23,016 nucleotides of DNA, taken from a virus. Lineage: Duplodnaviria; Heunggongvirae; Uroviricota; Caudoviricetes. This document shows, one piece after another, positions 187 through 3,867 of this stretch (position 1 is the first letter of the stretch; every line of letters starts with the position of its first letter). Made by a program: the position numbers and the translations under genes. The DNA lies in the IMG/VR virus record IMGVR_UViG_2563366874_000001; one strand, 5' to 3'. The notes beneath the pieces were generated by a model that saw only the letters and a list, made by a program, of their open reading frames with translations, was not told the origin of the DNA and searched no databases.

Positions 187-3867
<3,681 letters not shown>

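Follow-up and report, generated by a model that had tools for sequence, protein, structure and literature searches.

The portal protein of phage lambda, gpB, is known from several structures (8K38, 8XOT and others), and its chain is divided into a wing (residues 24–249 and 368–452), a stem (250–279 and 343–367), a clip (280–342) and a crown (453–511), with 12 portal subunits in each virion (PMC10721106). Defects in this and other head functions have been described among the lambdoid prophages of O157 Sakai: several reside together in that genome and share near-identical, recombining segments, and a number of them carry the score ‘D’ for their portal or head functions (Asadulghani et al. 2009, PMC2669165). 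In that pool, defective prophages are rescued by recombination and complementation (PMC2669165). Here we describe a lambda-like prophage of E. coli that was very probably made defective by a recent natural C>T nonsense mutation in its portal gene, stands at an early stage of decay, and probably passed the mutation to a second prophage by gene conversion.

The stretch of DNA that we analysed, hereafter the window, is 23,016 nucleotides long, and a look-up of the exact 264-residue product encoded upstream of the stop identified it as the first 23 kb of scaffold KB732318.1 from the natural isolate E. coli KTE21 (GCA_000350785.1). It contains a lambda-type late operon, beginning inside Nu1. The head and proximal tail module occupies positions 1–11470 on the plus strand: the 3′ end of Nu1, A, W, the amber-bearing B, C/Nu3, D, E, FI and FII, all intact except B, are followed by Z, U, V, G/T (with the slippery heptamer GGGAAAG at 9598–9604) and most of H. 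This tract is shared by the DLP12-type and the Qin-type prophage described below. The rest of the late region (11471–22551, plus strand) holds the end of H, M, L, K, I, J, lom and the side tail fibre genes, all open. Compared with a chromosomal prophage of E. coli ST3, the window shows 33 substitutions and no indels over 22,551 bp (99.9% identity), and the 23 late genes other than B, from A through the side tail fibre genes, are all open and free of indels relative to ST3. The ST3 prophage is flanked by ompT, envY and nfrA, which is the DLP12 position.

Portal gene B is arranged as in lambda: W (2083–2289) overlaps its start at 2286, and C starts at 3868, inside its end. The original prediction had described a frame of 533 codons at 2286–3887 with TAG at codon 265, and translation and alignment bear this out; the amber codon (3078–3080, plus strand) is the sole internal stop of the frame, which comprises 533 codons plus the terminal stop. 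With that codon repaired, the translation aligns over residues 1–533 with 8k38_A (1214 bits). The window’s B is 97.9% identical to lambda B, and the 34 differences among 1602 sites are mostly synonymous. An ungapped alignment of the gene to its counterparts in lambda and in relatives, a check that had been suggested for the region around codon 265, gives CAG (Gln) as the wild-type codon: CAG is found in lambda (J02459), in E. coli ST3, CEA212U and KK19-02 and in phage PhiR49_1, and likewise in STEC17-190, E2865 and L032. The sense codon that had been proposed for lambda was therefore the right one. Because lambda and the closest relatives all have CAG, the polarity of the change is plain: it is a C>T transition at 3078 that turned Gln265 into an amber codon.

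The stop divides the gene in two. The N-terminal fragment (2286–3080, plus strand), 264 codons plus the TAG, encodes the opening portion of the wing and reaches halfway into the first stem helix. Codons 266–533 and the terminal stop (3081–3887, plus strand) form an untranslated remainder, which specifies what is left of the stem, the clip, the crown and the part of the wing that contains the tunnel loop. In it, gene callers place a 260-aa ORF starting at GTG 3105, and both portal fragments match PF05136. By homology and by its position relative to W and C, B is a lambda-type portal gene, and it lacks the uninterrupted frame of a complete wing-stem-clip-crown protein. Since the TAG interrupts the frame inside the stem helix formed by residues 250–279, we treat B as a pseudogene. 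With the remaining late genes open, the original description holds: one point mutation has put a nonsense codon into an essential portal gene that is intact in all other respects.

The window also differs from lambda at codons 305–306 (3198–3203), which read GAC AAG (D305/K306) where lambda has GAA AGG. The gpB loop to which these residues belong (303–319) is disordered in the cryo-EM structure (PMC10721106). This variant lies 120 bp downstream of the stop and recurs in intact alleles, for example that of STEC17-190. We considered whether it marks a small imported patch that brought the TAG with it and rejected the idea, the variant being a common polymorphism found in intact alleles; its presence in such alleles also indicates that it is a tolerated surface polymorphism, unlinked to the stop.

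At the right end of the window, homology to ST3 stops at 22551, and the remaining stretch (22552–23016, minus strand) is the end of an IS3-family insertion sequence containing the 3′ end of its transposase gene. Its translation is the C-terminal part of a DDE transposase, 100% identical to genes annotated ‘IS3 family transposase’, and the terminal repeat TGAACCGCCCCGGGTTTCC presumably resembles that of IS629/IS1203. Its insertion site lies in a small ORF that begins at 22541, beyond the tail fibre genes; in ST3 this ORF is uninterrupted and 97 aa long. After the portal TAG, this insertion is a second lesion in the prophage.

The exact 264-aa N-terminal product was found on 45 contigs in 94 blocks of a collection of NCBI, ENA and Logan assemblies. 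Its carriers include the complete genome OZ040122.1, three ENA gut-metagenome assemblies and one IMG isolate genome, together with a single IMG/VR prophage. A local 41-mer search of IMG/VR likewise returned the TAG form once and the CAG form at least 120 times. No matched place in 5,426 complete RefSeq E. coli genomes reaches the identity expected for the TAG allele, the allele was not found in the phage collection searched, an exact-pattern scan of GTDB species representatives gave no copy, and IMG/VR, when scanned, yielded no sequence that joins the TAG to a lambda-like haplotype downstream. One of the TAG-bearing sequences, a metagenome contig from ENA ERZ1308114 (L011), has ZnuA-type, ABC transporter and Usp genes at its positions 1–3290, directly before the prophage porin and lysis genes; the presence of these genes in place of the early region suggests that the latter has been deleted or replaced in that strain.

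The TAG allele is recent, as judged from its near-identical CAG counterpart, from an intact but otherwise identical protein and from the near-absence of differences among TAG copies. The CAG copy L032 has a single other difference from the window within 2563–7431 (4.9 kb). The intact protein WP_048264986.1, which has the same sequence except for Gln265, is encoded on 21 contigs, and nine TAG loci show 0–1 differences from the window over 1–7431. The allele does not appear to be obviously counter-selected, since it is on 45 contigs as against 21 for its immediate CAG parent, counts that are to be read with the knowledge that each genome contributes at least two TAG copies and that the sampling is clonal. 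A second 260-aa C-terminal portal fragment, with the same GTG start and four residue differences (E305, R306, Y395 and N528), occurs in E. coli KTE19 (P0030; EOU64964.1). It may reflect recombination of the TAG onto another portal haplotype or an independent break.

The complete chromosome OZ040122.1 carries the TAG allele at two places, 2.58 Mb (L007) and 3.81 Mb (L008), in opposite orientations. L008 has a DLP12-type early and lysis region (Q, a porin gene, holin, lysozyme and Rz) and matches ST3 upstream of and across the head module. L007 belongs to a Qin-type region, with a ydfT-type antiterminator, cspB/F, IS200, DUF1327, rrrQ, rzpQ, cspI and gnsB. From a point shortly before Nu1 as far as the FII/Z junction, a tract of 8,011 bp that includes the TAG, L007 and L008 do not differ at a single position (100% identity), whereas upstream of this tract they are unrelated or about 10% diverged. 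Against its Qin-type relative in strain AR_0067 (L165), L007 shows a single mismatch over the first 7,000 bp (99.99% identity), and beyond about positions 7000–7136 of L007 the divergence jumps to 2–4%. From there on, at 246 consecutive informative sites (window 358–11470), L007 has the window (DLP12-type) allele and never that of L165. Two non-allelic prophages that share a tract without a difference, sharp falls in identity at its edges, and one copy, L007, at odds with its own lineage together make up the pattern by which gene conversion is recognised. The region of the FII/Z junction also carries a 43-bp tandem duplication (7404–7499, plus strand; 2.2 copies, 96% matches) that spans the FII stop and the ribosome-binding site and start of Z. 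Its second copy retains the Z ribosome-binding site and the ATG at 7466, and the first copy forms an out-of-frame decoy ATG; the duplication is present in ST3, KTE21 and L007 and missing from L008 and L165.

KTE21 itself has a 9.1-kb stretch on three scaffold ends, L009, L010 and the window (KB732299, KB732307 and KB732318). The scaffold breaks fall at the single SNPs marking the edges of the inter-prophage repeat, immediately before position 1 of the window and at 9127, and because of this coincidence we take KTE21 to have probably two TAG prophages plus assembly redundancy rather than three copies. In its Qin-type copy (L009), six Nu1 sites have kept their native state, whereas OZ040122.1 has them converted (L007 7135–7715). 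The left edge of the tract thus differs between the two strains, which implies that conversion was repeated or extended. The simplest reading of these alignments is that the TAG null allele spread by recombination between resident prophages, with a tract of about 12 kb entering the Qin-type copy, and the likely direction is from the DLP12-type to the Qin-type prophage. Both lambda-type head modules found in OZ040122.1 are portal-null. Two lysogenisations by related phages that already carried the TAG could in principle also have placed the tract in two prophages.

Taken together, these observations favour the following course of events, which is reconstructed from sequence comparisons. A spontaneous C>T change (Gln265 to amber) would have arisen in the DLP12-type prophage adjoining ompT/envY, in KTE21, OZ040122.1 and their relatives. 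Translation would then end in the middle of the first stem helix of gpB, codon 265 falling within that helix (250–279) in the solved lambda portal. The resulting 264 residues contain neither clip nor crown, nor the second stem helix or the tunnel loop, and for this reason are expected to be unable to build the dodecameric channel for DNA. Since prohead assembly is nucleated by the portal, to which the terminase and the tail dock, no infectious particles would be expected in a suppressor-free host, except perhaps for a trace made possible by near-cognate reading of UAG by tRNA-Gln, which would give the wild-type protein. For the host the lesion is probably neutral and able to persist, as a silent prophage is not selected for its virion genes. 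Homologous recombination (gene conversion) would next have copied an 8–12 kb head/tail tract with the TAG into the Qin-type prophage about 1.2 Mb away, and the IS3-family insertion at the right end would be a second hit, leaving the prophage at what is probably an early stage of decay toward remnants such as DLP12 and Qin of K-12. Breakage of portal genes is not rare in itself: 5 of 119 lambda-type portal copies unselected for codon 265 (about 4%), the IMG/VR prophages L050, L057, L063, L108 and L122, are broken by frameshifting indels. The prophage has the marks of a defective one, being integrated in the chromosome (OZ040122.1 and the ST3 flanks) and carrying inactivating lesions (the portal TAG and the IS3-family insertion at 22552). 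Among the interpretations that accompanied the original prediction, that of a defective or cryptic prophage is accordingly supported, by the nonsense codon in an essential portal gene and by the chromosomal location, that of a laboratory amber mutant is rejected, and that of a phage needing a suppressor host is unsupported, for the reasons given below. The prediction had included neither the presence of the allele in two different prophages of one chromosome nor the IS element at the right end.

Two alternatives would do away with the lesion altogether. That the stop is a sequencing or assembly artefact, or entered through contamination by a laboratory lambda Bam strain or a cloning vector, is scarcely credible. 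KTE21 is indeed a short-read draft, and the window begins at a scaffold end within a repeat, but the T recurs in an IMG isolate genome, three ENA metagenome assemblies and, at two loci, a complete genome. Furthermore, the KTE21 scaffolds were broken at single SNPs on both sides of the repeat, and a C/T difference between copies would probably have been visible in the same way. An error at 3078, which had been named as an outcome that would overturn the prediction, is excluded as a one-off event because the identical TAG allele is replicated in independent assemblies. Contamination accords poorly with a B gene only 97.9% identical to that of lambda, with 34 differences, and with the chromosomal genes that flank the prophage in its relatives. 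We also tried a laboratory lambda backbone as a candidate and discarded it: instead of near 100% identity to J02459, the late region shows about 97%, and the J and stf regions are divergent. The 34 differences among 1602 sites and the location in a chromosomal prophage of a natural isolate, on scaffold KB732318.1, thus rule against a Bam-type laboratory mutant; a literature search for the positions of Bam1 and Aam32 yielded nothing usable. It is highly improbable, too, that the portal is a functional two-piece protein (a 264-aa N-terminal part and a 260-aa C-terminal part from GTG 3105) or that programmed recoding takes place at the stop. Gene callers do annotate two ‘portal protein B’ ORFs, and both match PF05136, yet the split is limited to one recent haplotype, all other copies examined being unsplit by this stop, and the cut would take residues 265–273 out of a continuous stem helix. 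Direct reading of the sequence gave no convincing ribosome-binding site before either GTG 3105 or ATG 3117. As for recoding, the stop is not conserved, copies outside the one haplotype reading CAG, and the RNA downstream does not point to a signal: the fold of 3060–3180 is no more stable than that of shuffled sequences (z = −0.07), and there is no Rfam match in the window. There is also no promoter-like site in 2900–4000, and we therefore find nothing that supports a two-piece protein or programmed readthrough. A naturally two-piece portal, the other outcome that had been named as overturning the prediction, is therefore unsupported, the split being confined to one recent haplotype.

The remaining alternatives accept the mutation and differ on its consequences. 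The phage might still be viable, either in natural amber-suppressor hosts or through leaky readthrough, in which case the two TAG prophages would be separate infections; we consider this unlikely. A supE-like glnV with anticodon CUA inserts Gln, which here would restore wild-type gpB, as the original codon was CAG. Even in suppressor-free E. coli, tRNA-Gln decodes UAG with low frequency, so a trace of portal function may remain, because such misreading would yield wild-type gpB. Since a virion needs merely 12 portal subunits (PMC10721106), basal readthrough could sustain a small residual yield; everything else in the late region is intact, and 45 contigs carry the allele, which occurs on at least two prophage backgrounds. 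On the other hand, the window and nine related loci, covering late regions and parts of early regions, contain no tRNA gene, on which account a phage-borne suppressor tRNA was rejected as a candidate, and a literature search for natural amber suppressors in E. coli found nothing relevant in the library covered. In the Qin-type copy the break with its own lineage is clean, and its position is not the same in two strains, as conversion in place would produce. The allele has almost no diversity, was not found in the 5,426 complete RefSeq genomes or the phage collection, and in IMG/VR stands at one TAG copy to at least 120 with CAG. The dependence on an amber-suppressor host that had been proposed is consequently neither required nor supported, with no tRNA gene at these loci and with the presence in two prophages explained by recombination. 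The stop might also have been selected, if loss of the portal domesticates the prophage (no infectious particles, with immunity, lysis and cargo kept) and its spread was favoured. Both lambda-type head modules found in OZ040122.1 carry it, and it is as frequent in the collection as its CAG parent, but a portal defect leaves induction and lysis in place and brings the host no obvious gain, the 8–12 kb tract carries the TAG as a passenger among 246 other sites, and the frameshifts in 5 of 119 other portal copies look like ordinary neutral decay. As the TAG copies are essentially identical, with divergence too small for a test of selection, we rate a selected stop as quite unlikely. We give equally little credence to a head module that is conditionally functional, in a natural supE-like suppressor lineage or by Gln readthrough, and whose copying was favoured, for instance as a host-controlled virion switch.

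Early prophage decay after a natural nonsense mutation is thus the reading that we prefer. Its general importance is small, and it offers a clean, datable example of the first step of such decay, in which one point mutation has occurred and the other late genes are intact. The less common feature of the find is that recombination within the prophage pool of a cell can spread a lethal defect and not just repair defects. For annotation, the two ‘portal protein B’ ORFs of KTE21 and related genomes are best entered as one pseudogene, and completeness tools that count gene presence alone would wrongly call such prophages intact. A strain of the KTE21 type also provides a natural portal-null background for induction and transduction work.

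Set beside the systems already described, the window’s B is closest to lambda gpB itself (PDB 8K38/8XOT; PF05136), both genes having 533 codons and identical W-B-C overlap arrangements, and the proteins being about 98% identical from end to end. It departs from lambda in having TAG rather than CAG at codon 265, and the nucleotide differences number 34 in all, including those of its D305/K306. It shares an amber codon in gene B with the laboratory mutants Bam1 and Bam10 of the Charon vectors and packaging strains, and supE would suppress the window’s amber to wild type, the parent codon being Gln. Unlike the laboratory mutations, however, the window’s allele belongs to a natural prophage haplotype that differs from lambda by 2% and is found in a natural isolate and in gut metagenomes. 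The prophage pool of Sakai offers the same setting, several lambdoid prophages per genome that recombine through near-identical segments and some of which are defective, but there the outcome is the rescue of defects, whereas in OZ040122.1 recombination propagated one null allele to both head modules. Finally, the two prophages have recognisable counterparts in K-12, with which they share their early and lysis gene sets: the one adjoining ompT/envY resembles DLP12 (quuD, an nmpC-type porin, essD, rrrD and nohD), and the Qin-type one resembles Qin (ydfT, cspB/F, essQ, rrrQ, rzpQ, cspI, gnsB, ydfO and nohA). In the K-12 remnants, which represent later stages of the same decay, the structural genes beyond the Nu1 homologue are gone, whereas the prophage in the window keeps the whole head/tail module, with one stop codon and one IS insertion.
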